Virus record (IMG/VR): IMGVR_UViG_3300037243_000174
Coordinates: 1-42,474 of that record
DNA: 42,474 nucleotides
From: a virus
Lineage: Duplodnaviria; Caudoviricetes
Direction: 5' to 3' (one strand)
Every line of letters starts with the position of its first letter. Position 1 is the first letter of the stretch. Position numbers and translations under genes: made by a program. Positions 1-15,562 of the stretch are shown piece after piece. The notes under the pieces were generated by a model. It saw only the letters and a program-made list of their open reading frames with translations, did no database searches and was not told the origin of the DNA.

Positions 1-3000
1 CCGCTCCGCCTGGGTGGGGGGCAGCCGCTTGTCCTTATCGGCGACCTGCTTGGCCTTCAGCTTGGCGAAGTTGTAGTGGTCATCCCACACCTTGTGGGTC
101 AGCCCATAGTCGATGATCACCGCATGCTGCTTGACATCGCCCCACTGCTCGGGCCGCTTCAGGTCGTCCGGGGACAGTTCATGCTGCTGCAGGCTGCGGA
201 CCAGTTTGCGGGTCCCCGGCGGTAGGTCGTCGATCACCACCTGCCGGTCAGCCGGGGTCTTGGCATGGGTGAGCTGGGTGATTCGGGAGCAGAAGGTGCC
301 GAAATCAAGCCCGAAGTCGCGCCGGAAGTCAGCGGGCACTAGCGCGTGGGCGTAGTCCACCACCAGCGCCAGGCTGCCCTGGGTGGCGAACAGCACCTGG
401 GCGATCGGCAGGTCGTTGAAGTTGCGGGCGATATGTTCCTCGACTTGATTCTGGGCCACCCCAGCCGGGTTCATGGCGATCTTGAGGGCATGCTCCTTGT
501 CGATCTGGTAGCAGATCCGGGAGCTGCCCTCGTCGCCCACCTGCAGGTAGCTCTCGGTGGCCCAGGTGCGCAGCAGCCACAGCTTGAACAGGGTGTCAGG
601 GTACGGCTTCAGCATCTTGTCCAGTGCACCCGCTTCGATCTGCTGGGCGCTCATGCCGACCAGCTTGGGCAGGGTGGTGATCCTGATCAGCGCGGTCATG
701 GGGAACGCCCCGCCCAGCTTGGTCAGGATCCACTTGGCGATCAGCGCTCCGTTCAGCTTGGTCCGGTCCAGCCGCTGAGTCTTGACCCGGCCATTGAAGC
801 CTTCGGTGAAAGCGACCGCGTCACTGGCGCCCTCGCCGTCGGGGCCCATCAAGAAGGAGAGCCGGTCGTCGGTGCTGGTGGTCAGGTAGGCCTCGACCGC
901 TGCCATGCCGGTATACAGGGTCAGGAACTTCCCGGCCCAGGCAACCACCTCGTTGGCGGTGTTCAGAGTGACCTGGGGCTGAGCCACCTGCCCCGGCTGG
1001 GGTGTGGCCGACTTCTTCCGCAGCAGCTTGGCGTGCTTACGTCGGGCGCCTCCTGACGGAAATCCGAGAGAGGCATTCGCCACAGCTCGTGGGACTGCAA
1101 ACTGCCCGTGGTTTTCCAGCCACTCATCGATGTCCCATTCCTCCCGCTGGTAGCTGTTAGCACCGGCGACGTCGAGCAGCTTGGCGTCACCAAGGTCAAA
1201 ATCCATATGAACCGCGTCCCTTGGCACCCGGATGCGCATGACCTCGGCTGGGCTCACCCCAGGAACCTCGCCGTAGCGCTGGGCCGCCTCATAGTCGTTG
1301 GTCAGGTATACCCACGGGGTGTTGAATCCTCTTTTTCGGATACGGGATGCCGCTTCCGGACTGGTTCCATGAAACAGTGTCACCGACCCTGATGCCTGCT
1401 TGCGCTGGGCCTCCAGCATCTCCTGCAGCTCGCCGCCCTGCTCCTTGGCCTCCTCGGCGTCGTCGACGTGGCTGGGGGTTTCCAGCGCGTGCACCAGCTT
1501 CTCGTGCTCATCGATCGCGTCGCCCAGGCTCATGGAGTAGGTGTCATCCTTGATCTGCTCGGCGGTCTTCGGCTGCAGCAGCTTGGCTACTCGTCGTCCG
1601 GCGGAGCGAGCAGGGGATTCGGGTAGGGGCAGGTCACCTGAGCGAGATAGCGCTGCATTTGCTCTGCCGAGCACTCGCTCGACCCCGTGACTGTCTTGGA
1701 CGGTGTAGAGATCACGTAGGATCCGTCGTCGTTCCAGGTCAGTGATCCCCCGCTGTAGGTTCTTCCATCTTTGGTCACGGCCTATGAACCCCTCAACGGT
1801 TAATTCTCGGTCGGATTGCAGGTCACGTCCATAAGAATCGCATAGCTCGGTAGAAATGGCCTTGACCTCGTAGTTGCAGCGATCCTGCCCCAGGTCGTTA
1901 TGCCTAGGGTTGTCGTTCATCTGGTCATACCCCGCACGGTCCCACTGGAACATGTGGGAAAGCTCGTGGGCAAAAAAGTTTTTAACTTCATGAACCAGAC
2001 TCGGAGAAAACCCGCTCAGCATGGATCGCACGTCCACCCCGTGTAGGTCCAGGGCCATCGCCTCCGGCCCCACCCCACCCCTGGCGGACACCGTGTCCCT
2101 CTTGCTCAGGTTCCACTGCACAGATAGGATGTGCACCCCTGCGGCAGGAATCCACTCGGGGATCACGTCGGCAACAGAAACCTGCGTCGACGCCGGTCCA
2201 GTGGTAGGGTTGTTACGGTAGGCCATGCGAACCGCCTCTTCGCACCTTCGCGCCAGCGTGTCCACCAGCTCTGGGGGGACTGGCACTGGGTGCGCCAGCT
2301 TCGGCTGCAGCAGCTTGGCCGTTCTCCCGGTTACTCTTCCCCGGGCCAGTTCTGGAATTCGCGCGGCAGCTCCGCTTCCAGCTCGGCTGGCAGTGGCTCG
2401 TCCGGGTTCAGCTCCGGATGGTTCATCCGCAGGTAGTTCTCCCTGGTAAGAGGAATCCCGTGGGATTTCATCGCCTCCAGTGTGGGGTTGAGCCCAGCTT
2501 GGGGTCTGGATCCCCCCGGCGTGATCGACAATGGCACTACGGGCGGTATCGGCATTGATGCTCCCCTTGGCGAACTTGGACCAGACGTGGTCGACCTGTG
2601 ACTGCAGTTTGGCATCTTTCTGCTCGGGCCTGAAGAGTCCCCTGACTGATTCCCAGGTGATCGACTGAAGCTCCCTGGGCTGGACGCCCAGCTCATTGGC
2701 TGCCCTGCGGTAGGCCTCAGCATAGAACCCGTAGAGGCCAGCGTTACCATGGACGGAACTCTTGACCGGGCCCGGCTCTCCGGGCTGACCCTTGACCGGG
2801 ATGTAGTTCTGGCCAAAGTTGTGCAGCACCTCGCGACTGGTCCCGGCCAAGGGGCGGATCAAAGCTGCGGCCACCGCATGGGTGTCAATCGTCACGTCTC
2901 CGCCGCTGGACAGAGGGGCGATCAGGTTGTTGTAGAAGCTGCGCACCTTGTGATTGGCGGTCTTCCCCTCAGGGCTGAGGATGCTGGAGATCACCTTGTT

Positions 3001-4536
3001 GTTGGTGGCCTCCACGCACCCGATCGCCTTGGAGATGGTGTCGAAGCCGCCCCAGGCCAGTCCGGTGGGGGTGCCATCGTTGTTCAGGTACCAGTCACCG
3101 AACTCCCCCTCCGGGGTGAGCTGGCGGCACTGGTGCGGGTTGGTGGCTTCGTCCCACGCCCGGACCCAGATGGCCATCCCGTAGAGATTGCCCTCCGCCT
3201 GCAGCTGGTGCAGAGTCTTACCCTCCAGCTCAGGTAGCAGGTCGACCGGACTGGGACGGCCGGAGGACGGCTTGGACCACACGTTGTCCTTACCCTTGGC
3301 CGGACCGGTGAGCAGGGCGGTCATGGCGGGGGACCAGGGCTGGTCGGCCTGCTGGCACACGGCGGTCATTACCCGCTCAGCCAGGGATACGTTCTGGAAC
3401 CAGTCCTTCTGGGGGGACAGGGAGGCCAGACACCCGGCCACCTGGTGGGGCTTCAGGCCGAACTTGGCCGACCAGCGGTGCACCAGCCGGTTACCACCGA
3501 CGTACCATGCCTTGGACCGCTTGCGCAGATTGGTGCCCCAGGAGTTGTAGAGCCAGATCAGGTTGTTCTTCATCAGCTCGATGATGGCTTCAGCCTGATC
3601 TTGCACGGAGCCCTTGCCGGTGATCCCGGTGAAGTTGGGGTAGCTCTCCAGTAGGGCGACATTGGCGGCAAAAGCGTCAGGATCCCGTGACAGGGGCTCA
3701 AGACCGGGCTGCAGCTTGTCGGCCCCATGGGGATTCTCCAGCGGCGTCTCGCGCGCCACCCCCCGGGGTGCCTCCTTGGCCCAGGGCTGGCGGGGGCTGA
3801 TGCGCATGTCGTCCAGGCTGTTGACCAGGTCGTCTTCGTCCTGCTCGATCACCGCGTCCCAGATCGGGTGCAGTCCGGTGAACCCCCCGACTGCCTTGAG
3901 GAACGGATTGAACTGATCGCCCAGGCCGGAGCGCAACTTGGCAACGAAAGCGTCGAAGGTCTTGACCCCACCCTGCATGGCCTGCTGGGCGATGCTGTAG
4001 AACTGCTCCAGCGTGGGGCCGTCGACCTGCAGCTGGTCGGCGACAATACCGCAGGAATCCAGCTTGGCGACGACGAAGCCTTTCTTCCAGCCGGTCCACT
4101 TCGGCTCCGGGGTTTTGACGAAGGCGTCGACAATGTCCCCCAGCACCTGCTGCTTGCGCAGCTTGTTCTCCAGCACCAGGGCCCGCACCCGCTGGTTGAT
4201 CTGGGTCGAAAGCATCTTGCTGTGCTTGACGCTGAAGATCAGCTCGACGTATTCCTGATCGAGCACCGCCCAGGCCTGCTCGGCAAACGCCTGGGCGGTG
4301 GCCAGCGGGGAGGGTCCCGGGGGCACCTGGACCAGGAACGGCTTGGAGCCATGGTTGCGGCCGTCTTCGCCGATCACGTGCAGCTCCCCGCGCAGACCGC
4401 CGCCTGTCAGCACCGGCTCGGCGTACAGCTCGAAGCTGGGCCCGGCGAGGCCTTCCAGGACGATCTTGACCACCCGGCCGCTGCCGTCGTCGATGTCGTG
4501 TTCAATGCGGGCGGTTACTTGGGTCACGGCGGCCAT
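1..4536 (-). CDS. Polyvalent protein A (3'-partial, >1512 aa): N-terminal unknown domain, HhH/EndoIII-like (DUF7178-like) domain, HExxH zincin, ART-like domain, protein-kinase-like domain
   Basis: Not in the ORF track. Hand translation from ATG 4536 (alternative GTG 4527, better spaced from GGAG) has no stop before base 1. Motifs: LSPQKDWFQN / HKVRSFYNN / VTIDTHA / PRELQSITWE (~3430-2640), HELSH (1954-1968), LFHGTS...VYLT (~1380-1290), GSSRICY..ALKIAMN..G..QN..E / DLKRPEQWG / IIDYG (~530-90). Confidence 0.9.
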   Translation of the reverse strand, partial: MAAVTQVTARIEHDIDDGSGRVVKIVLEGLAGPSFELYAEPVLTGGGLRGELHVIGEDGRNHGSKPFLVQVPPGPSPLATAQAFAEQAWAVLDQEYVELIFSVKHSKMLSTQINQRVRALVLENKLRKQQVLGDIVDAFVKTPEPKWTGWKKGFVVAKLDSCGIVADQLQVDGPTLEQFYSIAQQAMQGGVKTFDAFVAKLRSGLGDQFNPFLKAVGGFTGLHPIWDAVIEQDEDDLVNSLDDMRISPRQPWAKEAPRGVARETPLENPHGADKLQPGLEPLSRDPDAFAANVALLESYPNFTGITGKGSVQDQAEAIIELMKNNLIWLYNSWGTNLRKRSKAWYVGGNRLVHRWSAKFGLKPHQVAGCLASLSPQKDWFQNVSLAERVMTAVCQQADQPWSPAMTALLTGPAKGKDNVWSKPSSGRPSPVDLLPELEGKTLHQLQAEGNLYGMAIWVRAWDEATNPHQCRQLTPEGEFGDWYLNNDGTPTGLAWGGFDTISKAIGCVEATNNKVISSILSPEGKTANHKVRSFYNNLIAPLSSGGDVTIDTHAVAAALIRPLAGTSREVLHNFGQNYIPVKGQPGEPGPVKSSVHGNAGLYGFYAEAYRRAANELGVQPRELQSITWESVRGLFRPEQKDAKLQSQVDHVWSKFAKGSINADTARSAIVDHAGGIQTPSWAQPHTGGDEIPRDSSYQGELPADEPSGAEPGRATASRAGSGAAARIPELARGRVTGRTAKLLQPKLAHPVPVPPELVDTLARRCEEAVRMAYRNNPTTGPASTQVSVADVIPEWIPAAGVHILSVQWNLSKRDTVSARGGVGPEAMALDLHGVDVRSMLSGFSPSLVHEVKNFFAHELSHMFQWDRAGYDQMNDNPRHNDLGQDRCNYEVKAISTELCDSYGRDLQSDRELTVEGFIGRDQRWKNLQRGITDLERRRILRDLYTVQDSHGVERVLGRANAALSRSGDLPLPESPARSAGRRVAKLLQPKTAEQIKDDTYSMSLGDAIDEHEKLVHALETPSHVDDAEEAKEQGGELQEMLEAQRKQASGSVTLFHGTSPEAASRIRKRGFNTPWVYLTNDYEAAQRYGEVPGVSPAEVMRIRVPRDAVHMDFDLGDAKLLDVAGANSYQREEWDIDEWLENHGQFAVPRAVANASLGFPSGGARRKHAKLLRKKSATPQPGQVAQPQVTLNTANEVVAWAGKFLTLYTGMAAVEAYLTTSTDDRLSFLMGPDGEGASDAVAFTEGFNGRVKTQRLDRTKLNGALIAKWILTKLGGAFPMTALIRITTLPKLVGMSAQQIEAGALDKMLKPYPDTLFKLWLLRTWATESYLQVGDEGSSRICYQIDKEHALKIAMNPAGVAQNQVEEHIARNFNDLPIAQVLFATQGSLALVVDYAHALVPADFRRDFGLDFGTFCSRITQLTHAKTPADRQVVIDDLPPGTRKLVRSLQQHELSPDDLKRPEQWGDVKQHAVIIDYGLTHKVWDDHYNFAKLKAKQVADKDKRLPPTQAER
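1012..1032 (-). repeat. Linker motif variant encoding AKLLRKK
   Basis: GCCAAGCTGCTGCGGAAGAAG between the ART-like domain and the next domain of polyprotein A. Confidence 0.6.
1567..1587 (-). repeat. 21-nt linker repeat GCCAAGCTGCTGCAGCCGAAG (AKLLQPK), exact copy
   Basis: Identical to 2299-2319, 11743-11763 and 12505-12525; in frame at a domain boundary. Confidence 0.95.
1587..1778 (-). CDS. Candidate nested +1-frame peptide (63 aa) overlapping the zincin C-terminus and linker of polyprotein A
   Basis: GTG 1778 preceded by GAGGGG (10-nt spacer); TAG stop overlaps the first base of the AKLLQPK repeat; C-terminus QRYLAQVTCPYPNPLLAPPDDE. Confidence 0.4.
   Translation of the reverse strand: MTKDGRTYSGGSLTWNDDGSYVISTPSKTVTGSSECSAEQMQRYLAQVTCPYPNPLLAPPDDE
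2299..2319 (-). repeat. 21-nt linker repeat (AKLLQPK), exact copy
   Basis: Identical to the other three exact copies; immediately precedes a zincin domain. Confidence 0.95.
2331..2555 (-). CDS. Candidate nested +1-frame small acidic protein (74 aa) following the HhH/EndoIII-like domain
   Basis: AAGGGGAG SD 5 nt before ATG 2555; product MPIPP...LEAMKSHGIPLTRENYLRMNHPELNPDEPLPAELEAELPREFQNWPGEE is protein-like while the host frame here is a low-complexity G/A/R/P linker; stop lies just before the AKLLQPK repeat. Confidence 0.6.
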   Translation of the reverse strand: MPIPPVVPLSITPGGSRPQAGLNPTLEAMKSHGIPLTRENYLRMNHPELNPDEPLPAELEAELPREFQNWPGEE

Positions 4537-4549
4537 CTCCACTTAGGAA

Positions 4550-7500
4550 TCAGGGAGCAGTCGGGGCGGCCTTCAGCTTCTGCTTCCGCTCAGCCCAGCG
4601 CACCAGGTAGTCGTCCACCGCCAGGGCCACGTTGCGGATCAGGTAGCGCCGGTTGTCCTGGTTCCAGTGCCGGTTGTAGCGCTTCCAGGTGGCTGAGCGC
4701 ATCAGCAGCTGCTCCATCGGCAGCACGTCCGGCAGGCGCTGGACGCCCAGGTGATCCTCCACCTCCTTGATGATCATCTGCAGGAAGGCGCGCACCTCGT
4801 TGGGCGCGTTGAAGTATTCCAGGCCGCCCTTGGCGTAGCTGGGCCGGTCGGTGTTGTATTCGTGCCGCCGGGGGTCCATGAGGTGGGTCAGCTCGTGGTA
4901 GACCACGCTGCGCAGCTCGTTCCTCAGCGCGTAGGTGTCGGCATCGTCCCAGACCATGTAGAGGCAGTGGTGGTCCAGGGTGACGACGATGGTCGGCGGA
5001 GCGGACCCCTCATCATGCAGGGAGCCCTTGACCACGAACCGGCCGACGCTGCGCTTGGGGAACTTCACGTAGACCAGCTCCAGCTTGATCGGTTCGTTGT
5101 CGTACCACTCCGGGTGGGCATGCACGTGGCGCCCGGCCGGGTTGAGCCACTCCTTGCTCGCCTCCGGGCCGTCCAGCAGGGCCCGCTCGTAGCCCTTGGG
5201 GGGATGGTGCAGGATGGTGTCCAGCAGGATCGAGAGGATCTGGCCGACCGCGCCGGACGGCAGGGGGATGGCCCGGGCGGTCTTGGCCACCTGACCCTTC
5301 ACCACCTCGGCGCCGAACTGCTCCTGGAACCGCTTCACCTCGCTGCTTGGGACCAGCACCGCGACCCGGGTCTCGCCGGAGTCCCGCAGCACCGCCCACC
5401 GATGGCGGCCGTCGCCGAACATGATGCTGCCGCTCGGGGTCAAGCCCATCATGGGGACGTCGATCGGGGTGTCCGGGTTGTCCTTCAGCCACTGCTGGAA
5501 CTGGGAGTAGCGGTTGCCGATGGACGCTCCCGAGCCCCCCGCCCCTACATAGAAGTTGCTGTCCTGGGAGTAGCTGGCCTCGACCGCAGCCACGTCGACG
5601 GTGATCAGGGTGTAGTCGCGGTAGGTCCGCTTGGGCTGGTAGAGCAGGGCCTGCTTGTCGGCGGCCATCAAGGCCTTGTTCCCGGGATCCCAGGTCCCCT
5701 TGTTCTTGATCGACTTGAGCTGGGCCGGGTCGAACACGAAGCCGGTGAAGGTGCCGTCCTTCTCCGGCAGGATGGCGCCGTCGTAGCCCCGGTGCTTGAA
5801 CTCGCACAGCATGAGCTGGTCGTACTCCTTCCATCCCGCCGGGTTCGAGATCTTGGCGAACATCTCCAGGATGATGCCCTTCCCGGCGGCGCCGACCTCA
5901 CCGGCCTCGATCGCTGAGCGGTCGTTGGTGAACCAGATGATGCCCTGGGTGGTCAGCTTGGGGTTGAACGAGCGGAACTTCTTGTCGGTGCCGTGGTAGA
6001 CCACGACCGGCTGGCCGCTGGCGTCGACCACCTTGCTGTCGCTGAACCAGGACTTGAAGGCCGGGGACTCGGTGGGGTCCTGGACGGGCGCAGCCGCCGC
6101 CTTCGCCACCCCGTCTCCTCCCAACCATGTCCTGAACTCGGCCACGCCCATGGTCTTGATCGAGCCGAGCCGGTCGTTCTCCCAGCCCGCCGGGTAGTGC
6201 ATCAGGTAGCCGCGCTTGGCCTCCTCCAGGCTGGTGAAGCCGAGCATGCACTTCGTCTCGTCGAAGGAGCCGTCCTTCTTCAGCTGGTTGACCACGAACA
6301 CCTGCAGGGCGTCGTGACTGGGCCCGACGTAGACGTCGATGGTCTCCCCGTCTCCCCCCAGGGGACCGCCTTCGATGCAGCCGTAGTCGAGCAGGTAGAC
6401 CCGGGCCCAGGCCTTGCCCTCCTCGTCCTCGCCCAGCTTGGTGGACCCGGCCGGGTACTCGATTGCCACCGGGAAGCCGGAGACGGTCAGTCGGCGGCGG
6501 ATGGGGTCGTCCCCGGCAGTTCGTCGGGCAGCGACATGTAGCGCACGGAGCGAGGACCTATGGGGGTTGGGCAGGGCACCATCAGATCCCACCGGGGTCC
6601 GTGGCTCCATAGGGGCTCCACCTCCCCCTTGGGATTTATCCAGGACCCAGGCGAGGTCTCGGACAATTCTGTTTCTTCCGGCTTCAGGCATTTGTTCTCG
6701 GATGGCAGACCATCGCCAATCGGCATTGAGGAACTCCTCTATGGTTGTATCCCGCTCAGGTTTATCGGCTGTCTCTGGATGCGGTCGAGTCTGCAGCCAC
6801 TTCCTGAAGTCCATGCATAGTTCAGTCGCTAAGGCTTTGACCTCGAGGGGGTGGGCCATGGGGAGGGGGCCCCTGCGATTGCTGGCTTCCTGGTAGTGCT
6901 CTGCTCCCTCGTAGAGAGCCTGGGCTGCATGAGACAATTCGTGGGATACAGTGGACCACAGGTCCTTCAGTAGGAACGCGGGGGGAGCACTGGCCACCTC
7001 GCGGGATAAGGTGGTCGTCTTTATGATGATACCCGGGGGGGTCGCGTAGGTGCCTGCGTCCGCAACGGACGGGGTGCTACAGGGCACATTGGACACGCCT
7101 AGGTAGACCTTGAACTCGTAGCCCGAAAAACCTGCTAGGGCTTCGTCCAAAACGTAGTTGGATAGATCGGTGTCGACCCACATGCTGTTCGAGGCAACTG
7201 CACCGTCCCACGCCGCACCCGATGTGGCGGCAGCCAGCCCCTTCAGCTTTTGGGCCAACTCGCTTGTGACCGCGTCAACCAGCCCTGGGGCTATGCTGAT
7301 GGGCGCGGCAGTCTTGGCCGAGGCGGTCATCCGGGCATCAGCCGGATCGAATGCCCCGCTGTTGCCGATGGCGGACTTGATCTGGTTGGGGCTGAACGCC
7401 ACGTACATCGATCGCCCTGCGGCTTTCCCGGTGCCGACGATGATCATGCCGTCGTGCCCGGCCTTCTTGCACTTGGCCTGCAGGTCCTCCCAGTTGCTGT

Positions 7501-7870
7501 CGTACCAGAGCTGGGTCCACTGGCCGCCGGACTTGCGCACGTAGGGGTACTTGATCGACAGGTAGACCGGCTTGACGTTGGGCCCGGCCCCGCCCTTGTC
7601 CGACAGGCCCTTGTGGATCTCCGACCAGCGGGCCACGTCCTCCGCCTCGTCCGGGTCGCTGGTGAAGAAGAACCCCTCCCGGCCAGGGAACCTGAATTCC
7701 CCGTAGTTGCTGTTCTGCTTGGCCATCTCGAACGTGTCGAAATCGTGGGCGGTGCCGTGAAACACCATCAGCGGTCCACCGGAGGGGTCGACGACCTTGG
7801 ACCCGGTGAACCAGGCCTCGAACTCAGGGGTCGCGGGCGCCTTACGAGGCGGGACGAAGTTGGCGGGCAT
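4550..7870 (-). CDS. Polyvalent protein B (1106 aa): ART-PolyVal-like, HExxH zincin, inorganic-pyrophosphatase-like, second ART-PolyVal-like, ParB-like, C-terminal zincin
   Basis: AAAGGA SD. Two F.xWF.xSKVVD..G.P.V.(F/Y)HGT...G.DG...F.P.Q.KS..N.G.(F/W)D units; HELSH 6929-6943; IEYPAGS..DYG..GGDGETIDVYVGP..FDETKCMLGF; DGRHRW; HELTH 4883-4897. Confidence 0.92.
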   Translation of the reverse strand: MPANFVPPRKAPATPEFEAWFTGSKVVDPSGGPLMVFHGTAHDFDTFEMAKQNSNYGEFRFPGREGFFFTSDPDEAEDVARWSEIHKGLSDKGGAGPNVKPVYLSIKYPYVRKSGGQWTQLWYDSNWEDLQAKCKKAGHDGMIIVGTGKAAGRSMYVAFSPNQIKSAIGNSGAFDPADARMTASAKTAAPISIAPGLVDAVTSELAQKLKGLAAATSGAAWDGAVASNSMWVDTDLSNYVLDEALAGFSGYEFKVYLGVSNVPCSTPSVADAGTYATPPGIIIKTTTLSREVASAPPAFLLKDLWSTVSHELSHAAQALYEGAEHYQEASNRRGPLPMAHPLEVKALATELCMDFRKWLQTRPHPETADKPERDTTIEEFLNADWRWSAIREQMPEAGRNRIVRDLAWVLDKSQGGGGAPMEPRTPVGSDGALPNPHRSSLRALHVAARRTAGDDPIRRRLTVSGFPVAIEYPAGSTKLGEDEEGKAWARVYLLDYGCIEGGPLGGDGETIDVYVGPSHDALQVFVVNQLKKDGSFDETKCMLGFTSLEEAKRGYLMHYPAGWENDRLGSIKTMGVAEFRTWLGGDGVAKAAAAPVQDPTESPAFKSWFSDSKVVDASGQPVVVYHGTDKKFRSFNPKLTTQGIIWFTNDRSAIEAGEVGAAGKGIILEMFAKISNPAGWKEYDQLMLCEFKHRGYDGAILPEKDGTFTGFVFDPAQLKSIKNKGTWDPGNKALMAADKQALLYQPKRTYRDYTLITVDVAAVEASYSQDSNFYVGAGGSGASIGNRYSQFQQWLKDNPDTPIDVPMMGLTPSGSIMFGDGRHRWAVLRDSGETRVAVLVPSSEVKRFQEQFGAEVVKGQVAKTARAIPLPSGAVGQILSILLDTILHHPPKGYERALLDGPEASKEWLNPAGRHVHAHPEWYDNEPIKLELVYVKFPKRSVGRFVVKGSLHDEGSAPPTIVVTLDHHCLYMVWDDADTYALRNELRSVVYHELTHLMDPRRHEYNTDRPSYAKGGLEYFNAPNEVRAFLQMIIKEVEDHLGVQRLPDVLPMEQLLMRSATWKRYNRHWNQDNRRYLIRNVALAVDDYLVRWAERKQKLKAAPTAP
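6487..6726 (-). CDS. Candidate nested +1-frame peptide (79 aa) overlapping the zincin C-terminus and linker of polyprotein B
   Basis: AGAGGAG SD 7 nt before ATG 6726; C-terminal half WINPKGEVEPLWSHGPRWDLMVPCPTPIGPRSVRYMSLPDELPG spans a low-complexity host linker. Confidence 0.45.
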   Translation of the reverse strand: MPIGDGLPSENKCLKPEETELSETSPGSWINPKGEVEPLWSHGPRWDLMVPCPTPIGPRSVRYMSLPDELPGTTPSAAD

Positions 7871-8180
7871 TTGTGGTTCCTTTCGTGCGCAGGTGCTTAT
7901 GCTTCTTGGTGCCCATGGCCTGGGCCGCCTGCAGCGGAGCCATGTGCTGCGGGGTCATCGGCTCTTCCGGCCCGGGCAGGCCCAGCAGCGCGGCCTCCAC
8001 CAGCGGGCGCAGGGCCCGGCCGACCGTCTCGCCCTTGACCAGACCTTCCCACGGCTTCAACGTGGCCAGCCGGGCATAGACCTCGGCCCACAGGTACGGA
8101 GTCTTGGGTAGCACACCGTCACGGGCCTTGATGGACAGGATTTCACGTTGGACCAGCTTCATGACTTCGGCCTCGGTCAT
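7842..8180 (-). CDS. Hypothetical protein (112 aa)
   Basis: GAGGG SD; short overlaps with both neighbours; normal amphipathic composition. Confidence 0.7.
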   Translation of the reverse strand: MTEAEVMKLVQREILSIKARDGVLPKTPYLWAEVYARLATLKPWEGLVKGETVGRALRPLVEAALLGLPGPEEPMTPQHMAPLQAAQAMGTKKHKHLRTKGTTNARQLRPAS

Positions 8181-9393
8181 CTTCGCCCTCTACCTTGGCG
8201 GGGGAAGTTGCGACGATCGGGTGCGCCCGGCGCCAGCGAAACCGCTTGCCCGAGTTCTGCTCCTGGTGGTGCTGCGGGCAGGCGGGCCAGTTGATCGCCG
8301 GGTCCTTGGGGCAGCCGCAGCGGTAGCACTTGCCCTTCCGTTTGAACCGCAGGTAGCGCCGGTGCTGGTAGTCCTTGGAGTAGGCGGCCCGTTCCTCCTT
8401 GGTCATCCGGGCCTGGGCGGCGATGGCCTTCCAGATCCGCTGGCCAATGGTCGTCTCCCACAGGGTGAGCGCTTCCTCCCGGTGCATATGACAGAGGTAG
8501 TCCCCGTGCTTGTAGGGGTTATCGCAGCGCAGGCAGAGCCCCTGCTGCTGGCGACTCTGTTTCACCGCGCGGTAGCGCTGGGCGATCTTCTGTTTGCACT
8601 CAGGACAGCGGGTGCCCTTCTCGGGGAGCGGGTTCTTCCAGCAGGCCCGGCAGGGGGCGAAGCCCAAGCGGACGGTGGCAGCCGCGTAGTTATGCGCGTA
8701 GTGCTCTCGCTGCAGCTGAGTCCTGCACCCGGGACGATGACACACGTCGGGGACGGTTCGCCCTTTACCCTCGTAGGGAGGAATCTTGGCCCCACAGAAC
8801 CGGCAGGCCAGCTTGCCGTCCAATAGGTCCTGGTAGCGCTGACTGACGGGCCACTGGCGCCAGCTGGGGGGTCGGAACGGCGGCACCGGTAGGGTGGGAT
8901 TCTGGGGCACCGCCACCAGCGGCAGGAGGTGGAGTGGCAGGTAGCAGCTCGGGCTCGGCCACTCCTTGGCCTCTGGGGTCATCTGCCGATCCCCGCTGCC
9001 CTCCAGCACCCAGATCGGCCGGAACCCCAACAGGGCCAGACGGACCAGCACCTCCGCTCCGATCCTGGCGTGGTAGCCCTTCTCTAGGATGCAGGTGGAC
9101 CCCTCGGTACGGTGGAGCAACCGGCCAAACTGGGTCAGGGTCAGGCCCAGGAGATCCTGGATATGGGCGATCCGGGCACCGATCGCCGCCGTCGGCCGGG
9201 GGCGGGGCGGCCGCTGAAAGGAACGGACCGGCGGGGGTGGGTCGGGCTTCAAGGCCCCGGCCTGATCTAGGACCCTGACCACCTCGGCCCGGGTCCGGAG
9301 CGACCACCGGATCAGGTTCTTGATGGTGGCTTGGGTGGGGTGCTTGCGGTAGCGGGAGACCATTTCGGCCTTCACGGACGGGGTCAGTTTCAT
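8143..9393 (-). CDS. HTH-containing, multi-CxxC/CxxH zinc-finger DNA-binding protein (~416 aa)
   Basis: Start moved to ATG 9393, which forms an ATGA overlap with the upstream stop; Xre-like IGARIAHIQDLLGLTLTQFGRLL; CRFC, CHRPGC, CRAC, CPEC, CLRC, CHMH, CYRC, CPQH; very basic. Confidence 0.8.
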   Translation of the reverse strand: MKLTPSVKAEMVSRYRKHPTQATIKNLIRWSLRTRAEVVRVLDQAGALKPDPPPPVRSFQRPPRPRPTAAIGARIAHIQDLLGLTLTQFGRLLHRTEGSTCILEKGYHARIGAEVLVRLALLGFRPIWVLEGSGDRQMTPEAKEWPSPSCYLPLHLLPLVAVPQNPTLPVPPFRPPSWRQWPVSQRYQDLLDGKLACRFCGAKIPPYEGKGRTVPDVCHRPGCRTQLQREHYAHNYAAATVRLGFAPCRACWKNPLPEKGTRCPECKQKIAQRYRAVKQSRQQQGLCLRCDNPYKHGDYLCHMHREEALTLWETTIGQRIWKAIAAQARMTKEERAAYSKDYQHRRYLRFKRKGKCYRCGCPKDPAINWPACPQHHQEQNSGKRFRWRRAHPIVATSPAKVEGEDDRGRSHEAGPT

Positions 9394-9833
9394 GCTGGCG
9401 GCTCCAGTCGCTTGCGGTAGACCCACAAGGTGGTGGGGTGGATTCGTAGCCGGGCGGCCAGGTGCTGCCACTGCAGATCACAGCGCCGGGATAGGCCGAT
9501 CAGGGTGCGCACTTGGGCCTCCCGTTCACCCCGTTCGTGACCGTGACCGGGACTATCGATCCCGGCCCGGCCCAGGGCATCCCGCACGGCGTAGAAGCTG
9601 CATCCCATGGTCCGGGCCGTATGATCCATGGAGCGGAGCTGCTGGAACGCGGCCACGATCTCGGCGTCGGTGCGGTACATCGCCTCAGGACCCCGGGTGA
9701 TGGCCCCGGCACGCCATAGCCGGGCGTAGACGGCGCCGGTGGTCAGACCGTAGTCCGCCGCAATCTCAGCGATCGGGGTATGTCGGATCTGGTATAGGCT
9801 GATGATGACCTCGGTCTCGGGGTAATGGTCCAT
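9390..9833 (-). CDS. Tandem helix-turn-helix DNA-binding protein (147 aa)
   Basis: Three HTH-like units: IAEIAADYGLTTGAVYARL, MDHTARTMGCSFYAVRDAL, WQHLAARLRIHPTTLWVYR. Confidence 0.82.
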   Translation of the reverse strand: MDHYPETEVIISLYQIRHTPIAEIAADYGLTTGAVYARLWRAGAITRGPEAMYRTDAEIVAAFQQLRSMDHTARTMGCSFYAVRDALGRAGIDSPGHGHERGEREAQVRTLIGLSRRCDLQWQHLAARLRIHPTTLWVYRKRLEPPA

Positions 9834-9839
9834 ACCTCT

Positions 9840-9845
9840 ATGATA
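9840..9845 (-). promoter_or_regulatory. Possible -10 box (TATCAT) for a leaderless transcript of the HTH gene
   Basis: TATCAT sits 6 nt before ATG 9833 in a 112-nt intergenic gap; no clear -35. Confidence 0.3.
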
Positions 9846-9945
9846 GCGGGCGGCTACTCGTTCACGGCCTGGGGCAGACGACGCTTCTTTGGGGGCATAA
9901 GCCCAAAGTGTCTTAGATACGACCTCACCGCCTGGACACCTAGTC

Positions 9946-12900
9946 CTACCTCGCAGGAAATGTCCTCTGTCTCAACTCGACCTCTTTGAACAGCTTACCC
10001 CAACTCTGGGGTCCGGCAAATAGGATCAAGGTCCCGGGGAACCGATCGGCTCCGTTCCAGGTGTGGTCGTCAAGCAGCAGGTCCTGGGGCCTACCCACGG
10101 CCCCCTTGTCCTTCACCAGCTGGACGTGCCCAGGAGGTACGCTGGGGAACTCCTCCGCCATCCATTCCCGCTTCTCCTGGCAGGATTCCTCCCAGCGGTC
10201 ATCAGCGGGCTTGCTCAGGATGTAGACGGCCCCCGGGGCCATGCGCTGCAGCTTGGCCACCGCTTCCTTGGCCCCGGGCAGCACCTCCAGGTGGCGGAAG
10301 GCACCGGGCACGTTGAGCCATTCGTCGGGGGGGACCCCGGCCTCCTTGGCCGCCTTTGAATAAGCCGCGAGGGTGTCGTCCAGGTCGAGGTAGACCCGGA
10401 ACCCCCGGGCCAACTTGCTGCGCTTGTGCATAAGGTTGTAGGGTAGGTGCTTCCGAGCCCATCGGGCCGCTTCTGATACCTCGCCGGGGTCCAGGGGGCG
10501 TCCCACCCCTTTCGTGATCACCGAGAGATCGATGGGGCGCGGAATGGTTCCAGCACATCCACGGCTCAGATCAGCCAGGGTCGCCTCCCCCCTGGCGTCG
10601 ATCCCCATCCCCGACTCTGCGTCATAAACGAAGGCGTGGTGGCAGTCCCCACCCTCAGCGGGTGACCCGTCGCCATCGTCGAATAGGCCGTACATGGGGA
10701 GGCCGGTGATTCGGTGCAGAGCCACCGCCATGTCGAAACACCGGCCCCGCATCCACTCCCCAGCGTAGTCGGCCACCTTTGGCCGTAGCAGCTTGGCTCG
10801 TTTGCGCACAGGGACCTCTTCCTCTGATGGTAGCTGCTGGCTGGCCACCAAGCGCGCGTCGCCCTGGTCGAAGCTTCCTGAGTTCTCGACCCCCTTGATC
10901 TGGGTCGGCTCGAACACGACATAGACGTCCATGGGGTTGGGGTCCTCGGTGTTGAGGATGACCGCGCCGTCGTGCCCGCCCTCCTTGGCGTCGGCGATGA
11001 CCTCGGCGAACGACCGGCCGAGGCGACGCCCCTGGTGGTCCTCGACCAGCGGGTTGAGCATCCGCAGGTAGACGTCCTTGATCTCGCTGGTGCCCCAGTC
11101 GGGGGTGAAGTCCTGGATGGTGTTCAGGATCTGCTGGATGATCTCGATGGTTTTGCCCCCACCGGCGACCGACTGCTCCGCCTTCTGGACCGCCTGCAGC
11201 TCCCACTTCTTGGGCTTGGCCTTGCGCTCGACGTCGGCCTTGTAGCGCCCCGCCAGCTGCTGGTAGACCTCGAGCCGATCCCGCATCGAGCCGACGACCG
11301 CTTCCCGGACCTGATCTGCCGTCGGGTTCTTGGGCAACCGCTGGCGCCAGTCCCCGGCCATGAACAAGGTCCCTTCGGAGTAGCCGGTGTAGATCTTGCC
11401 GGTCAAGCCCTGGGCGTAGAGCGCCTCCCGGATCTTGGTCTCGGCTTGGCGCAGAGCGGTGCCGGTGGGGTCGGTCATGTTGGCGTAGGTCGCGGCCGCC
11501 TCCAGGTCCGGGGTGAAGAAGAAGCCCAGCTTGGAGCTGGGGGAGCCGGTGTTGCTACCCAAGGCTTTCGGGTCGAAGGCGTCGAAGCCACCCTTGGGGG
11601 TGCCGTGGTGGAACACCATGGGCTGGCCCGTACTGTCGACCGTCTTGCTGGCCCCGAACCAACGCCAGAAGTTGGCGATGCCTTCAGGGGTTGGGTGGAT
11701 GGGGGCACCGGCCGCGTTGGTGGCACCAGATCCGGCCGCCACCTTCGGCTGCAGCAGCTTGGCCCTCACCTGCACCATTCGGGGTGCTCGGTGTACATCT
11801 TGATCCGCGCCCAATACATTCTTTCGGCGAAGGTCTGCGACTTCGGGGTGCTCTCCGAGGAATTTGGTGTAGATGTACCCGAGGTCTCGGAGGACGTAAC
11901 GAACTGACTTTGGTCCGAGTTGCTGGGCAATTTCTGAGAATCCGTCGTATCCATGGATGAATGCCTCCGGCGTAAGTTTAGGATTCTGTTCGAGTTCGCT
12001 GGCGAATAGGTCGGCCATCTCGGCCCCATACGCTTTTCCCTCGTCGCGATCAGTTGGGGAGGGGGTGTGCGCCCCGAATGCCTCTAGTCCCTGGAATGCG
12101 CACTGATACATGTGAGCAAACTCGTGGATCAGGTTGTCCATCACGTAGCTCTTTACCGCGAGGGATAGGCTTACCGCTTCTTCACGTGAGGTGTCCCCGA
12201 ACACGTTCACAACAATCTGACGGCGCGAGGCGTCGAAGTGCCCCGGTGTGTCCGATGGGTCAGCCTTGCGGAGCCGAAGGATCACGTACAGGGGGTCTTG
12301 TCCCAGCTTGTTGGCGATCTCGGGCGCGGTCCGCTGTATGCAAGGAAACGCATCCACCGAGGCAGATACCCCGACGCGGGGAGACGACATCAAACGGCTC
12401 CACTGATCTGGTGAGGTGGACCGGGCCACTTCACTCAGTGCCGTAAGCAGGTTTGAGCGAATCTCCTGCACCATAGCCTCTGGAACCTGGATCGGCCGGG
12501 CCACCTTCGGCTGCAGCAGCTTGGCGGTCCGCCCAGCCACCGTGTTGTTCCAGAGCCACTTCAGGTAGGTCTGCACCTCGTACACGTCGGGGCTGACCCG
12601 GCCCGGGTTGTAGATCACGTCGTTCAGGTTCAGCTTGGGCAGGGACTCGCGCAGCTCGTCACCGTCCGGCATCGTCGCCCGCCGGAACTCGATGCCTGCC
12701 TCCCGCACCTGCTTCAGCTGCTCCATCTCCTGGTCGTTCAGCTTGCGGCCCAGGGCCCAGGCGTTCACCACGGCGGGCTCACCGGTGGCGCCGCGCTTGG
12801 GGTTGATCATGATCAGGGTCCACGGCCGTGACGGGGCCTTGCGGGTCTTCCGGTCCCCGGCCAGGAAGCTGGCGAACAGGTTCTCCGCTCCCTGCGCTCC

Positions 12901-14919
12901 GGCGATCGCCGCCTGCAGGGCCTCGGTCTCCTGCTTGGTGACCGGGCTGCTCCACTCGGGCCCCTTGGCGTGCGGCTGGGTCAGGAACCGGTTCGTGGTC
13001 TTCACCACGTAGGCCTTGGCGAAGCTCTCCTGGACGTAGTCATCCATCCTCAGGATGATCTTCGAGGAAACCGTGGGGGCCCAGCAGTAGGCGGGCCGAG
13101 GGTGGCTCGGGATCTGCAGGATGAACAGGTAGGCCGGGCGGGACTCCCACTCCAGCTGGTTCATGTCGCTGGTCTGGGTCACGAAGCCCGCACCGTAGCG
13201 CGCGTTGATCTTCTCGGCCTCGGCCTGCCAGTAGGTGCCGTGGCCATCGCCGATCCCGGCCAGGGCCTCCTGCGCCTCCTTGAGCGGCTTGCCGACCACC
13301 ATGACGTGGATTGCCACGTGATGGCAGACCTCATGCGCCACCACCTTGCGCAGGTGGTTCAGGTCCACCGCCAGCCCTTTCTGCAGGGTGATGTCGGAGT
13401 TGGCACCGGTGACGATGTCCTGGTTGAGGTTGAGCGAGTTGGTATGGCACAGGCCCAGGGTGTTGCTGGAGTTGCTGACGTAGCGGATCTTGGGGGGTGT
13501 GCACTTCCCCTCGGGGTCCAGGGCGGTCAGGAACTCCTGCATGATGGGCTGGAGGTCGGGGATCTTAGGGGCGGCGGCCTTCGGCTGCAGTAGCTTCGCC
13601 ATCTTGCCGTGCCACAGCTCAGTCACCTTGTTGGTCGCCAGGAAGTCGGCCAGTGGAAGGTCGGCTGTACGGTTGGCATCTCCGCGCTCCTCGCAGTAGA
13701 CCCGAGTGCGGGGGACCAGGTTCTGCTCCTGCAGGAACGCCTGGAACTTCTCGAACTGAAGCTTGGGGATTTTCCAGGCACAAATGACCGCCTCACCGTC
13801 GGTGATGGCGACGCGTGACCACCCCTTATCCATCAGCGTTTTAGTGAAATCGACGTCGTCCATGGCTCCCTGGGTGATGGCTCCTCCCCCGGGCTCCACC
13901 GAGTCCGCGACCTGCTCGTGCGCGGGATCTCCGATCCAGTAGCCCAGCACGTTTGCGGCGTGCTCCTGATGGCCCCATCTCGCTTCCTCAATCTCACCAG
14001 CCGGGTCCATCCAGAACTCGCCGGTAAGATTGTGGGAGGCGGTCTTGTCCTTCGCCTTGGGCAGATCCTTCAGCCTATCCTCCAACTCGGGCACCTGGTG
14101 GTCCTGCAAGCCGTCTACGAGCTTCGCGGCCTCTGCCAGGGCGTTGGGGGGCACCTCACCGGCTTCGGCCCTCCAGGCGTCAACCACGGGCTCCCATAGG
14201 TCCTTCCTGAGCTTCGCCAGGGTCTCGTCATCCGGGACCTCCTCCCGGTCGTTCTCGAAGCTGGGCTGGGGGATGATCACGACCTCGTCAGCCTTCTCCG
14301 CGTCCACGATCCCCAGGTCGTAAACCCGGGCCCACATGTCCACCATCGGCACGCTGACCAGGATGTCCTCCGGCTGGGCGATGGCGGTGACCAGGCGCCG
14401 GTCGACGTCCCCGAACACCTTGGCGTCGTAGATGTCCGTGCTCCAGGCGCTGGCGAAGTCGTATTGCTCCTTCCAGCCGTCCTCCCCCTGCAGCTTCTCG
14501 TTCCGGAACACCCGGACTGCCTCGGTGGGCCGGAACGGGGCCAGCAGGTCGGCCATGCTGAGCAGGCGCTGGGTGATGTCCTCCCGGTCGGCGTCGAACG
14601 AAACCCAGAACCGGGCCAGATGGCGGACTCGTAGGACATCCACCTCGGTCGGGATGGTGCGATCGGACTGGGAGACCCAGTTCGTGGGATCTTCGCCTTT
14701 GATTCGCTTGAACTCCGCTACGGCCTCCGCCGCGAAGGTCCGGTGCAGGAACGCGACCAGAACGGAGCGCTGGCCCAGGGATGCCACCCGGGCGGCCCGG
14801 GTCGCGCCCGCTCCGGCAGTCAGGCGCAGAGGACCCGCCACGGCCAGCTGGGCCGCCTTGGCGTTGAGGCCCTGCTGAACGGCGGCGAGCATGAGTTCGC
14901 TGGGGGAGGACATTTTCAT
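9946..14919 (-). CDS. Polyvalent protein C (~1657 aa): R-S-E ART-like, W..P.G..H domain, SprT-like peptidase, HExxH zincin, ART-PolyVal-like with insertion, Cys-His-Asp domain, HAD 5'(3')-deoxyribonucleotidase-like
   Basis: Start moved to ATG 14919, just after the upstream stop. VFR..SAWST..EKADEVV; AHEVCHH...GHGTYWQ (13321-13335); HEFAH (12112-12126); NFWRWFGASKTVD..FHHGT..GFFFT..GHDG; GRCFDMAVALH..HAFV..IDARG; YLDLDDTL..ILSKP..EKREW..LLLDD. Confidence 0.92.
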   Translation of the reverse strand: MKMSSPSELMLAAVQQGLNAKAAQLAVAGPLRLTAGAGATRAARVASLGQRSVLVAFLHRTFAAEAVAEFKRIKGEDPTNWVSQSDRTIPTEVDVLRVRHLARFWVSFDADREDITQRLLSMADLLAPFRPTEAVRVFRNEKLQGEDGWKEQYDFASAWSTDIYDAKVFGDVDRRLVTAIAQPEDILVSVPMVDMWARVYDLGIVDAEKADEVVIIPQPSFENDREEVPDDETLAKLRKDLWEPVVDAWRAEAGEVPPNALAEAAKLVDGLQDHQVPELEDRLKDLPKAKDKTASHNLTGEFWMDPAGEIEEARWGHQEHAANVLGYWIGDPAHEQVADSVEPGGGAITQGAMDDVDFTKTLMDKGWSRVAITDGEAVICAWKIPKLQFEKFQAFLQEQNLVPRTRVYCEERGDANRTADLPLADFLATNKVTELWHGKMAKLLQPKAAAPKIPDLQPIMQEFLTALDPEGKCTPPKIRYVSNSSNTLGLCHTNSLNLNQDIVTGANSDITLQKGLAVDLNHLRKVVAHEVCHHVAIHVMVVGKPLKEAQEALAGIGDGHGTYWQAEAEKINARYGAGFVTQTSDMNQLEWESRPAYLFILQIPSHPRPAYCWAPTVSSKIILRMDDYVQESFAKAYVVKTTNRFLTQPHAKGPEWSSPVTKQETEALQAAIAGAQGAENLFASFLAGDRKTRKAPSRPWTLIMINPKRGATGEPAVVNAWALGRKLNDQEMEQLKQVREAGIEFRRATMPDGDELRESLPKLNLNDVIYNPGRVSPDVYEVQTYLKWLWNNTVAGRTAKLLQPKVARPIQVPEAMVQEIRSNLLTALSEVARSTSPDQWSRLMSSPRVGVSASVDAFPCIQRTAPEIANKLGQDPLYVILRLRKADPSDTPGHFDASRRQIVVNVFGDTSREEAVSLSLAVKSYVMDNLIHEFAHMYQCAFQGLEAFGAHTPSPTDRDEGKAYGAEMADLFASELEQNPKLTPEAFIHGYDGFSEIAQQLGPKSVRYVLRDLGYIYTKFLGEHPEVADLRRKNVLGADQDVHRAPRMVQVRAKLLQPKVAAGSGATNAAGAPIHPTPEGIANFWRWFGASKTVDSTGQPMVFHHGTPKGGFDAFDPKALGSNTGSPSSKLGFFFTPDLEAAATYANMTDPTGTALRQAETKIREALYAQGLTGKIYTGYSEGTLFMAGDWRQRLPKNPTADQVREAVVGSMRDRLEVYQQLAGRYKADVERKAKPKKWELQAVQKAEQSVAGGGKTIEIIQQILNTIQDFTPDWGTSEIKDVYLRMLNPLVEDHQGRRLGRSFAEVIADAKEGGHDGAVILNTEDPNPMDVYVVFEPTQIKGVENSGSFDQGDARLVASQQLPSEEEVPVRKRAKLLRPKVADYAGEWMRGRCFDMAVALHRITGLPMYGLFDDGDGSPAEGGDCHHAFVYDAESGMGIDARGEATLADLSRGCAGTIPRPIDLSVITKGVGRPLDPGEVSEAARWARKHLPYNLMHKRSKLARGFRVYLDLDDTLAAYSKAAKEAGVPPDEWLNVPGAFRHLEVLPGAKEAVAKLQRMAPGAVYILSKPADDRWEESCQEKREWMAEEFPSVPPGHVQLVKDKGAVGRPQDLLLDDHTWNGADRFPGTLILFAGPQSWGKLFKEVELRQRTFPAR
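10777..10797 (-). repeat. Linker motif variant encoding AKLLRPK
   Basis: GCCAAGCTGCTACGGCCAAAG, between the ART-PolyVal-like and Cys-His-Asp domains. Confidence 0.8.
11743..11763 (-). repeat. 21-nt linker repeat (AKLLQPK), exact copy
   Basis: Identical to the other exact copies; between zincin and ART-PolyVal-like domains. Confidence 0.95.
11766..11954 (-). CDS. Candidate nested +1-frame peptide (62 aa) overlapping the zincin C-terminus and linker of polyprotein C
   Basis: GGAGG SD 9 nt before ATG 11954; ends FAERMYWARIKMYTEHPEWCR with TGA 2 nt before the AKLLQPK repeat. Confidence 0.42.
   Translation of the reverse strand: MDTTDSQKLPSNSDQSQFVTSSETSGTSTPNSSESTPKSQTFAERMYWARIKMYTEHPEWCR
12505..12525 (-). 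repeat. 21-nt linker repeat (AKLLQPK), exact copy
   Basis: Identical to the other exact copies; immediately precedes a zincin domain. Confidence 0.95.
13579..13599 (-). repeat. Linker repeat (AKLLQPK) with two synonymous changes
   Basis: GCGAAGCTACTGCAGCCGAAG; precedes the SprT-like domain. Confidence 0.9.
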
Positions 14920-14932
14920 AGGATACCCGCCC

Positions 14933-15562
14933 TCACATCTGCAAGTCCCACTGGAACACGATGTCAATGGATGCGGGCAGGTAGAAGCTACCGAATGTGG
15001 CGAAATTCAGCATGGTCATACTATCACTGCTGTTTGTCGTCGGGTTCCAGAACGCGGCGGTCAGGGGGTCGGTCCCGGCCCCACTATTAGCTGATTGTAA
15101 TCCTCCGCCCAGCAGTCCCATCTCCATCAGGGGGACATTGATGGCATCGGTGGTGGCGTTGAACGAGGTGAGGAACCGGACCAGGGTGGTCGGGACGGCT
15201 GAGACCGAGCTGTCAGGGTTCAGGAACAGCACCCCGCCGGGCGAGATCAGCGGCTTGCGCTTGACCGGATTGTAGGGTGCGGTCTCCGTGCCCAGGGCAG
15301 CGGGGGGCGGGGTGCTGGAGCTGCTGTTGGCCCAGGCCGAGGCTCCGGCGCCGACCACCAGTCCCCAGACCCCCCAGCAGGGGCCATCTCCCGCCGTCAT
15401 CTGAGGCCAGTTCATCTGGGCCAAGTGGCGGGCGAACAGGTTGCTGGCCCCGGCGACGATGGTATTGTCCTGGTCCAGCAGGACGTAGGCCGGATCATCG
15501 GCACTATAGACCTTGATGTGGCCATGCTTGATTGGACGGGGTGAGGCCAGGTCTTCGCGCAT
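14933..15562 (-). CDS. Phage baseplate/tail-fibre attachment-type structural protein (209 aa)
   Basis: N.IV..A..LFARHL, GLVVGAG, VRFLTSF, LMEMGLLGG, MLNFATF, IVFQWDL pattern typical of phage tail-collar/baseplate proteins; GGAG SD. Confidence 0.75.
   Translation of the reverse strand: MREDLASPRPIKHGHIKVYSADDPAYVLLDQDNTIVAGASNLFARHLAQMNWPQMTAGDGPCWGVWGLVVGAGASAWANSSSSTPPPAALGTETAPYNPVKRKPLISPGGVLFLNPDSSVSAVPTTLVRFLTSFNATTDAINVPLMEMGLLGGGLQSANSGAGTDPLTAAFWNPTTNSSDSMTMLNFATFGSFYLPASIDIVFQWDLQM

Follow-up and report, generated by a model that had tools for sequence, protein, structure and literature searches.

Out-of-frame genes nested behind enzyme domains of phage polyvalent proteins: candidate enzyme-inhibitor cassettes

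The embedded spanins of phage lambda, Rz/Rz1, are a small gene lying wholly inside another, in the +1 frame and with its own Shine-Dalgarno (SD) sequence, whose product partners the product of its host; they form one structural pair in a small lysis gene in which both frames are functional. ShiLan, as described in the part of PMC11855218 used here, is a selfish homing element with an HNH endonuclease hidden out of frame in a phage methylase. In MuF toxins a single toxin domain sits at the C-terminus, and the gene downstream is separate (according to the relevant passages of PMC5576092). We compared these systems with a phage DNA of 42,474 nucleotides (Duplodnaviria; Caudoviricetes; IMG/VR record IMGVR_UViG_3300037243_000174, positions 1 to 42,474), referred to below as the window. 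Three of its large genes, polyproteins A, B and C, contain four small open reading frames (ORFs), n1-n4, each nested at the end of an enzyme-like domain. An earlier note on this DNA had proposed that each of them encodes an inhibitor of that domain.

All four ORFs lie on the minus strand at the positions given by the earlier note, each in frame +1 relative to its host gene. The strongest case is n1 (2331-2555, minus strand), which starts with ATG and encodes 74 amino acids, an acidic helical core of about 50 residues following a variable N-terminal extension. Its SD-like site (AAGGGGAG, 2561-2568, minus strand) lies inside the last helices of the DUF7178 (PF23802) domain of polyprotein A (2476-3717, minus strand). 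Among 80 viral loci chosen by the upstream domain (38-50% domain identity), and thus free of peptide-based selection bias, an n1 homologue was found directly behind DUF7178 in 52 (+1 frame in 50, +2 in 2). Removal of near-copies and one shortened locus left 44 representatives, the window included: the peptide gene is fully nested, with the host frame open across it, in 23; the host stop falls at or near the peptide start in 9; and 12 have no match, of which we treat one (L061; weak peptide match, E 2e-4) as carrying the peptide. When loci were chosen by the peptide, the domain was immediately upstream in 53 of 54 (9 of the 54 being contigs already in the domain-chosen set), and the remaining one has just 80 nt of upstream DNA before the contig ends. 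On genome contigs, 20 of 33 loci have an n1 homologue (16 in +1, 2 in +2, 1 on the opposite strand, 1 in frame with a broken fragment). These counts tie n1 almost exclusively to its upstream domain, with which it travels whether nested, separate or inverted.

The nested frame also bears marks of selection. Over the same bases of the 23 nested representatives, the nested frame has 38% amino-acid identity and the host frame 23%, a comparison biased to the nested frame since the rows were picked and aligned on the peptide. Variability is highest at the third nested codon position, and the domain body shows the reverse pattern (48% host frame versus 24% nested frame). An SD sequence and start 8-29 codons ahead of the core occur in 27 of 31 representatives (L043, a +2 copy, excluded) versus 96 of 403 control windows. 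Homologues of n1 have, as the inhibitor proposal had anticipated, a conserved SD sequence, a conserved start and an open +1 frame, with purifying selection in that frame, subject to the selection bias just mentioned. Judged by its sequence evolution, n1 is a real protein-coding gene under selection in its own frame.

The n1 family is conserved at the level of residues, and the core is modelled as four short helices (predicted local distance difference test, pLDDT, 81.5) with a mean net charge of -4. Foldseek gave no fold match for the core, only 1 of 32 members matched PHROGs (E 0.003), and the protein database family (73 clusters) is nearly all unnamed or 'hypothetical'. A Pfam scan of n1-n4 returned zero matches, and an Atlas look-up of n1 and n4 was blank. 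Three GenBank phages have the DUF7178 domain, and one of them, the cultured phage LS06-2018-MD07 (OP947163), has an n1 homologue within a giant 'methyltransferase' coding sequence, with no feature annotated there. A cultured bacterium, Jannaschia seohaensis DSM 25227 (L153, NZ_UETC01000013.1), has the domain with a nested +1 n1 homologue (E 1e-22).

Homologues of n1 outside the nested layout tell whether the frame or its product matters. Four loci (L043, L058, L146, L161) have n1 as a separate +2 gene beside the domain, and in L158 (1848-2078, minus strand) the homologue lies immediately behind the domain gene and runs towards it from the opposite strand. Such copies indicate that n1 acts as a protein, not just as a frameshift product or an element in cis. 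In two contigs of Acidobacteria (L176:3905-4507, L178:3782-4415) an intact n1 homologue follows the last 40-70 residues of a broken DUF7178. Polymorphic toxin systems offer an analogy in orphan immunity genes, which these intact peptides beside domain remnants would resemble.

The earlier note had called the partner domain of n1 HhH-like, and structural comparison bears this out. The best VIA-align match of the DUF7178 model (pLDDT 89.6) is T. maritima OGG (3n0u; root-mean-square deviation 3.7, 184 aligned) with Z 9.0, a modest value for a helical protein, and every one of the top 22 rows is a glycosylase or a relative of that fold. Foldseek with the same model was weak (AGOG, E 0.47), and a PDB sequence search with DUF7178 gave no significant match. 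Lys257 and Asp278 (in TIDTH) are invariant across the 37 rows of alignment A2; they are candidates for the lyase Lys and the catalytic Asp of the HhH-GPD family. On the strength of the model, with its predicted HhH-GPD glycosylase-like fold, we regard DUF7178 as a predicted DNA glycosylase/apurinic-apyrimidinic (AP) lyase. HhH-superfamily glycosylases include antiviral ones (bioRxiv 10.1101/2025.10.29.685425, in the part used here).

The other three ORFs are nested at zincins. The window encodes four HExxH paralogues with invariant H127, E128, H131 and downstream E155, in agreement with both the earlier claim and the definition of zincin-like metallopeptidases as HExxH plus a downstream Glu (PMC5512222, in the part of section 8 used here). 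These are zincin A (HELSH ... EVKA; polyprotein A, 1648-2295), zincin B (HELSH; polyprotein B, 6620-7303), zincin C (HEFAH; polyprotein C, 11818-12504) and a fourth (HELTH; 4586-5257), all on the minus strand. The fourth is C-terminal in polyprotein B, belongs to a different sub-clade and has no nested ORF, and so serves as an internal control. Behind zincin A lies n2 (1587-1778; GTG, 63 amino acids; SD-like GAGGGG at 1789-1794), behind zincin B n3 (6487-6726; ATG, 79 amino acids; SD-like GAGGAG at 6734-6739) and behind zincin C n4 (11766-11954; ATG, 62 amino acids; SD-like GGAGG at 11964-11968), again all on the minus strand. An in-frame ATG further upstream, at 12029, would extend n4 to 87 amino acids. 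The claimed SD-like sequences hold up for all four ORFs, with anti-SD pairing of -7.6 (n1), -7.9 (n2), -8.6 (n3) and -9.5 kcal/mol (n4). A +1 ATG or GTG with an SD of -7.5 or better occurs at 22 of 11,906 host codons, at a threshold chosen after seeing n1-n4.

The earlier note had warned that chance +1 ORFs of similar length occur in these genes. Off-frame ORFs do exist (60 of at least 45 amino acids in 11 window genes), but n1-n4 outscore all others: by a codon log-likelihood ratio model trained on structural genes they take ranks 1-4 of the 60 and are the sole positive scores, n3 being the least protein-like. The GC content at third codon positions (GC3) of the host frame falls to 0.45-0.56 over n1-n4, versus 0.69-0.84 upstream in the same modules. 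A fifth +1 ORF (963-1127, minus strand; 54 amino acids) at the end of another polyprotein A domain has the strongest SD of this set (-9.8); we discounted it as a nested gene, since its codon score is negative and its second half strongly so. Assembly artefact as the source of n1-n4 is ruled out by run X2, independent DNA that spans all four with zero letter differences.

For n2-n4 the argument comes from paralogy and codon signal. The three zincins are 23-29% identical, and the nested starts fall in the same place of their alignment, after E-x-F-[IL]: those of n3 and n4 share one column, and that of n2 is one codon later. Each start demands a codon that is rare in the host (AAT 13%, CAT 26%, CGT 7.5%). 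There are zero +1 stops inside n2-n4 versus 6-9 upstream in each zincin module; the fourth zincin, which has no linker, has GC3 of 0.94 and four +1 stops in the matching region. Protein homologues of the zincins fall into two groups, a large one without linkers and a small sub-clade in which low-complexity linkers follow the domain. Paralogy and codon signal together make n2, n3 and n4 probable genes.

Several observations weigh against the inhibitor proposal, besides the modest Z-score and the peptide-biased identity comparison given above. Scans of viral sequences with zincin A, zincin C and P0011 found no homologous DNA for the zincin cassettes. n2, n3 and n4 resemble neither each other nor n1. 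In a protein-only comparison with P0005, substitutions compatible with a silent change in the +1 frame were 11 of 24 inside n4 and 11 of 33 outside it. The three zincin modules have GC3 of about 0.70 even upstream of the nested starts, and this low GC3 may inflate the codon scores of n2-n4. ART-PolyVal, InPase, NT5C, SprT and the fourth zincin are found in the same proteins without a nested gene. For n1 itself, 11 of the 44 representative domains have no detectable peptide, nor do 13 of the 33 genome-contig loci; the nine peptide-negative rows of alignment A2 (L061 included) still have both invariant residues, which means that the domain does not require the peptide. Finally, for peptidases of this kind Iyer et al. 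favour autoprocessing (PMC5512222, in the part of section 8 used here).

A rival view is that n2-n4 are frames open by chance or in decay, within zincin modules of lower GC that were acquired recently; only n1 would then be real, and there would be no general four-cassette system. This possibility concerns n2-n4 alone and overlaps with other explanations. The failure to find homologous DNA fits it: tblastn of zincin C in GenBank phages gave zero, zincins of this family were absent from the fetched loci (33 genome-contig loci included), and degenerate motif scans produced 8 unrelated metagenome matches and 0 viral ones, a further scan adding 4 viral matches, all unrelated. The low GC3 throughout the modules fits as well; the SD-like GAG-G is partly dictated by the conserved host E-x-F, and the fifth +1 ORF shows that a strong SD can accompany a negative score. 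However, chance hardly predicts codon ranks 1, 3 and 4 of 60, one start position in three paralogues, or an interior free of +1 stops next to stop-rich upstream sequence, none of which the linkerless fourth zincin shares. On balance, we consider it unlikely that n2-n4 are not genes.

Linker composition bears on how such a layout could have arisen. Ordinary genes of this genome contain 1.0% stops and 52% G/A/R/P when read in the -1 frame, and 3.5% stops and 47% S/T/P in the +1 frame. The G/A/R/P-rich linkers described in the earlier note are real in three cases (54-55%), but the n4 linker reaches just 37%. Similarly, three of the four peptides are richer in S/T/P in their N-terminal half, as had been noted, but n3 keeps its S/T/P (0.31 then 0.38). 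From these data the linker is what the partner gene yields when read out of frame, and the N-terminal extension of the peptide comes from the domain in the same manner. As the -1 frame has few stops, a polyprotein can read straight through a partner gene. The description of the small genes as overprinted thus applies to the S/T/P-rich extension over the domain but probably not to the linker part, where the direction would have been the reverse, because linker composition is that of an ordinary gene read in -1 and the nested frame is the conserved one. It is more likely, by these compositional data, that the polyprotein reads through an older downstream partner gene than that the gene was overprinted on a linker. 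In a quick tree, its careful search unfinished and L069 excluded as an incomplete sequence, 'nested' requires at least 5 changes and 'end-overlap' at least 3, and one end-overlap pair falls within a nested clade. The nested and end-overlap states thus interconvert, and the tree does not fix the ancestral state.

An unbiased screen of the fetched loci revealed further +1 frames. Two more small helical families are found in linkers of related polyproteins (L099:202-454 with L103:1-166; L103:607-766 with L110:649-781); both are conserved above the host frame, have SD-like sites and ATG starts, and are unrelated to n1. A very basic +1 ORF of 40 amino acids is found in an acidic host linker (L028:3803-3938, L029:5536-5671), its nested frame conserved in the two loci. 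A +1 cluster in an n1-less clade (L022:3211-3418, L038:4672-4888), where the host frame looks folded, is possibly a false positive.

Module borders are marked by AKLLQPK-type repeats, present in seven copies on the minus strand (1003-1036, 1558-1591, 2290-2323, 10768-10801, 11734-11767, 12496-12529, 13570-13603). Three of the four ORFs stop within 12 nt of a repeat, as reported earlier (n1 12 nt, n2 0 nt, n4 3 nt), and the motif also occurs at junctions without a nested gene. It could be a processing, packaging or recombination signal. The related protein P0154 contains six further such motifs. There the zincin C module and its linker stand between AKLLQPK borders in a different domain order, parted by other domains from their polyprotein C neighbours, which agrees with the earlier proposal of module shuffling and is what shuffled cassettes would be expected to show.

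Overall, we give about an even chance to the reading in which each small nested protein is an inhibitor that binds the immediately preceding domain, the pair forming an enzyme-plus-inhibitor cassette. Like an immunity gene, n1 is small, immediately downstream of its domain and specifically linked to it. Internal initiation by ribosomes, at the SD within the final helices of the domain, would yield a free peptide alongside each polyprotein. In the producing cell the acidic helical peptide would block the predicted DNA glycosylase/AP lyase; it would be missing from the new host into which the polyprotein passes. Going by paralogy and the codon scores, n2, n3 and n4 may act likewise on the zincins. 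A polyprotein that is likely delivered by the virion would then bear its own toxin-immunity-like cassettes. More tentatively, and at somewhat less than even confidence, polyvalent proteins may be strings of putative toxin-immunity cassettes in one frame, in which the inhibitor gene of each dangerous domain occupies the +1 frame of the linker behind it.

The exclusive linkage of n1 to its domain would be accounted for equally well if the nested proteins were positive partners of the upstream domain, that is folding chaperones, activators, specificity subunits or packaging/processing adaptors. In lineages without n1, an extension that is conserved and folded is often fused at that place (the L017 clade; L156, L159, L166, L169), possibly as a substitute for an accessory subunit. 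However, intact peptides beside broken domains (L176, L178) better fit protection from an incoming domain, and the acidic surface would suit a blocker of a DNA site. We consider positive partners unlikely, and a less probable explanation than inhibition. Among the n1-less loci (L017, L021, L025, L037, L044, L047, L077, L156, L159, L166, L169, L091), in which the domain often continues into the extension, that of the L017 clade retains 'SY' where the 'LT' of the nested gene lay.

The orphan copies on chromosomal contigs could also mean superinfection immunity, in which the peptides inhibit domain copies brought in by related phages and are made not with the late polyprotein mRNA but from short transcripts of their own, which the inverted copy would need in any case. 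RNA-library contigs of three studies all cover n4, coinciding at 11786-11975, and end at 11786-11787, where DNA contigs continue; this is a weak hint. Such contigs reveal neither starts, strand nor level, and RNA libraries may contain DNA. No sigma-70-like promoter was found in 1400-12600, where 1.3 were expected. We judge superinfection immunity distinctly improbable as the main role, although it is compatible with, and does not exclude, inhibition of the domain in the producing cell. Of the RNA-library contigs, two also coincide at 9331-9560, and one (depth 3.9) differs at 11896, a change that is silent in the host and T20M in n4 and is possibly an error.

The small genes might instead be passengers with no functional tie to the upstream gene, taken up together with it and maintained simply through linkage. 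Neighbouring DNA does travel together and peptide-less lineages exist, but the linkage holds at 33-50% domain identity and across downstream domains, frames and strand, and zero peptide loci with sufficient flank lacked the domain, which makes passengers very unlikely. An action of the nested frame in cis, by a programmed +1 frameshift giving an alternative C-terminus or by internal initiation tuning downstream translation, would suit a +1 frame that is open from within the domain end and the L176 peptide, which is in frame with a domain fragment, but is the least probable of all, given the dedicated SD and start, the separate +2 and opposite-strand copies, and residue-level conservation of the peptide.

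The genes that host these ORFs belong to a minus-strand block of a GC-rich (66%) phage, in which Ig-repeat and baseplate genes are followed by polyproteins A, B and C. Polyprotein A (1-4542) is open-ended at the window edge and contains DUF7178, a zincin and further domains; its zincin A is 100% identical to that of P0007, a database protein of 1568 amino acids. Polyprotein B (4550-7870, 1106 amino acids) has the order ART-PolyVal, zincin, InPase, ART-PolyVal, zincin. Polyprotein C (9946-14967, about 1660 amino acids, likely start ATG 14919) has SprT-like, zincin, ART-PolyVal and NT5C domains; all three genes are on the minus strand. Pfam matches in the window are PF18760, PF18823, PF10263, PF06941 and PF23802, covering DUF7178, ART-PolyVal, InPase, SprT-like and NT5C. 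Between polyproteins B and C, 8143-9833 holds Cys-rich and helix-turn-helix-like ORFs, with no Pfam match in 8143-9471. Window DNA is listed for 24 runs, 23 peat metagenomes and 1 permafrost metagenome; runs X5, X11, X13 and X20 gave identical low-depth pieces and no usable strain variants.

The architecture accounts for the odd G/A/R/P linkers and shows a natural route to same-strand overlap, and phage LS06-2018-MD07 exemplifies how annotation overlooks fully nested genes. If the nested proteins are inhibitors, they would explain how a phage could produce enzymes that attack DNA and protein inside the very cell that makes its progeny, would flag polyvalent domains that are dangerous to self, and would provide, by co-expression, a handle to clone and assay domains of unknown function. 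Cultured material is at hand in LS06-2018-MD07 and J. seohaensis DSM 25227. If polyvalent proteins are indeed strings of such cassettes, these could be shuffled at junction motifs with immunity kept and the polyprotein frame intact, and the 'disordered linkers' in giant proteins of phages would hold a general reservoir of inhibitors that annotation has missed, including a family against HhH DNA glycosylases and matched zinc-protease inhibitors.

Compared with solved HhH-superfamily glycosylases (T. maritima OGG 3n0u, AGOG, EndoIII), DUF7178 shares the fold and has the invariant Lys and the IDTH Asp in the expected order; unlike those listed, it is phage-borne, lies in polyproteins, is at most 15% identical and has a dedicated partner gene. 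The host genes unite unrelated effector domains in large multidomain proteins (by Pfam matches and the four HExxH paralogues), with Baseplate_J and He_PIG virion genes in the same window (Pfam). In this they are like the polyvalent proteins of Iyer et al. 2017 (the parts of PMC5512222 used here), large and multidomain, with ART-PolyVal, InPase and several HExxH zincins, beside baseplate J and Ig-repeat tail genes. They differ from the proteins in those parts by partner genes within the linkers; the main text of PMC5512222, as far as its searched passages go, does not use the word 'overlap', and its passages on 'nested', 'immunity' and 'adjacent' are without partner genes. In the open-licence literature, supplements aside, no paper turned up that describes partner genes nested within polyvalent proteins.

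The MuF polymorphic toxins (Jamet et al. 2017, PMC5576092, in the passages used here) likewise have a phage enzyme domain followed by a small ORF proposed as an immunity protein, and the end-overlap DUF7178-n1 pairs (9 of 44 representatives) share this layout. No window protein has a Pfam match to the MuF domain, the N-terminal trafficking part of such toxins. Unlike in MuF toxins, a gene here has several domains at internal positions, its frame runs on through the partner gene, and toxicity is putative. As in the ShiLan insertion (PMC11855218, part used here), a phage gene conceals a complete out-of-frame gene while its own frame stays open as a loop; unlike ShiLan, the peptides are of 50-80 amino acids, have no family match and are linked to the upstream domain, the n1 core being a four-helix peptide. 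The layout also resembles the engineered overlapping alternate-frame insertion (OAFI; bioRxiv 10.1101/2024.11.07.622342, part used here), which is synthetic and of which the nested genes would be a natural counterpart. Unlike Rz/Rz1, these are modular enzyme cassettes repeated in giant genes, the host frame being a passive linker. In its action such a cassette would resemble a polymorphic toxin-immunity pair, yet it is not a MuF toxin.

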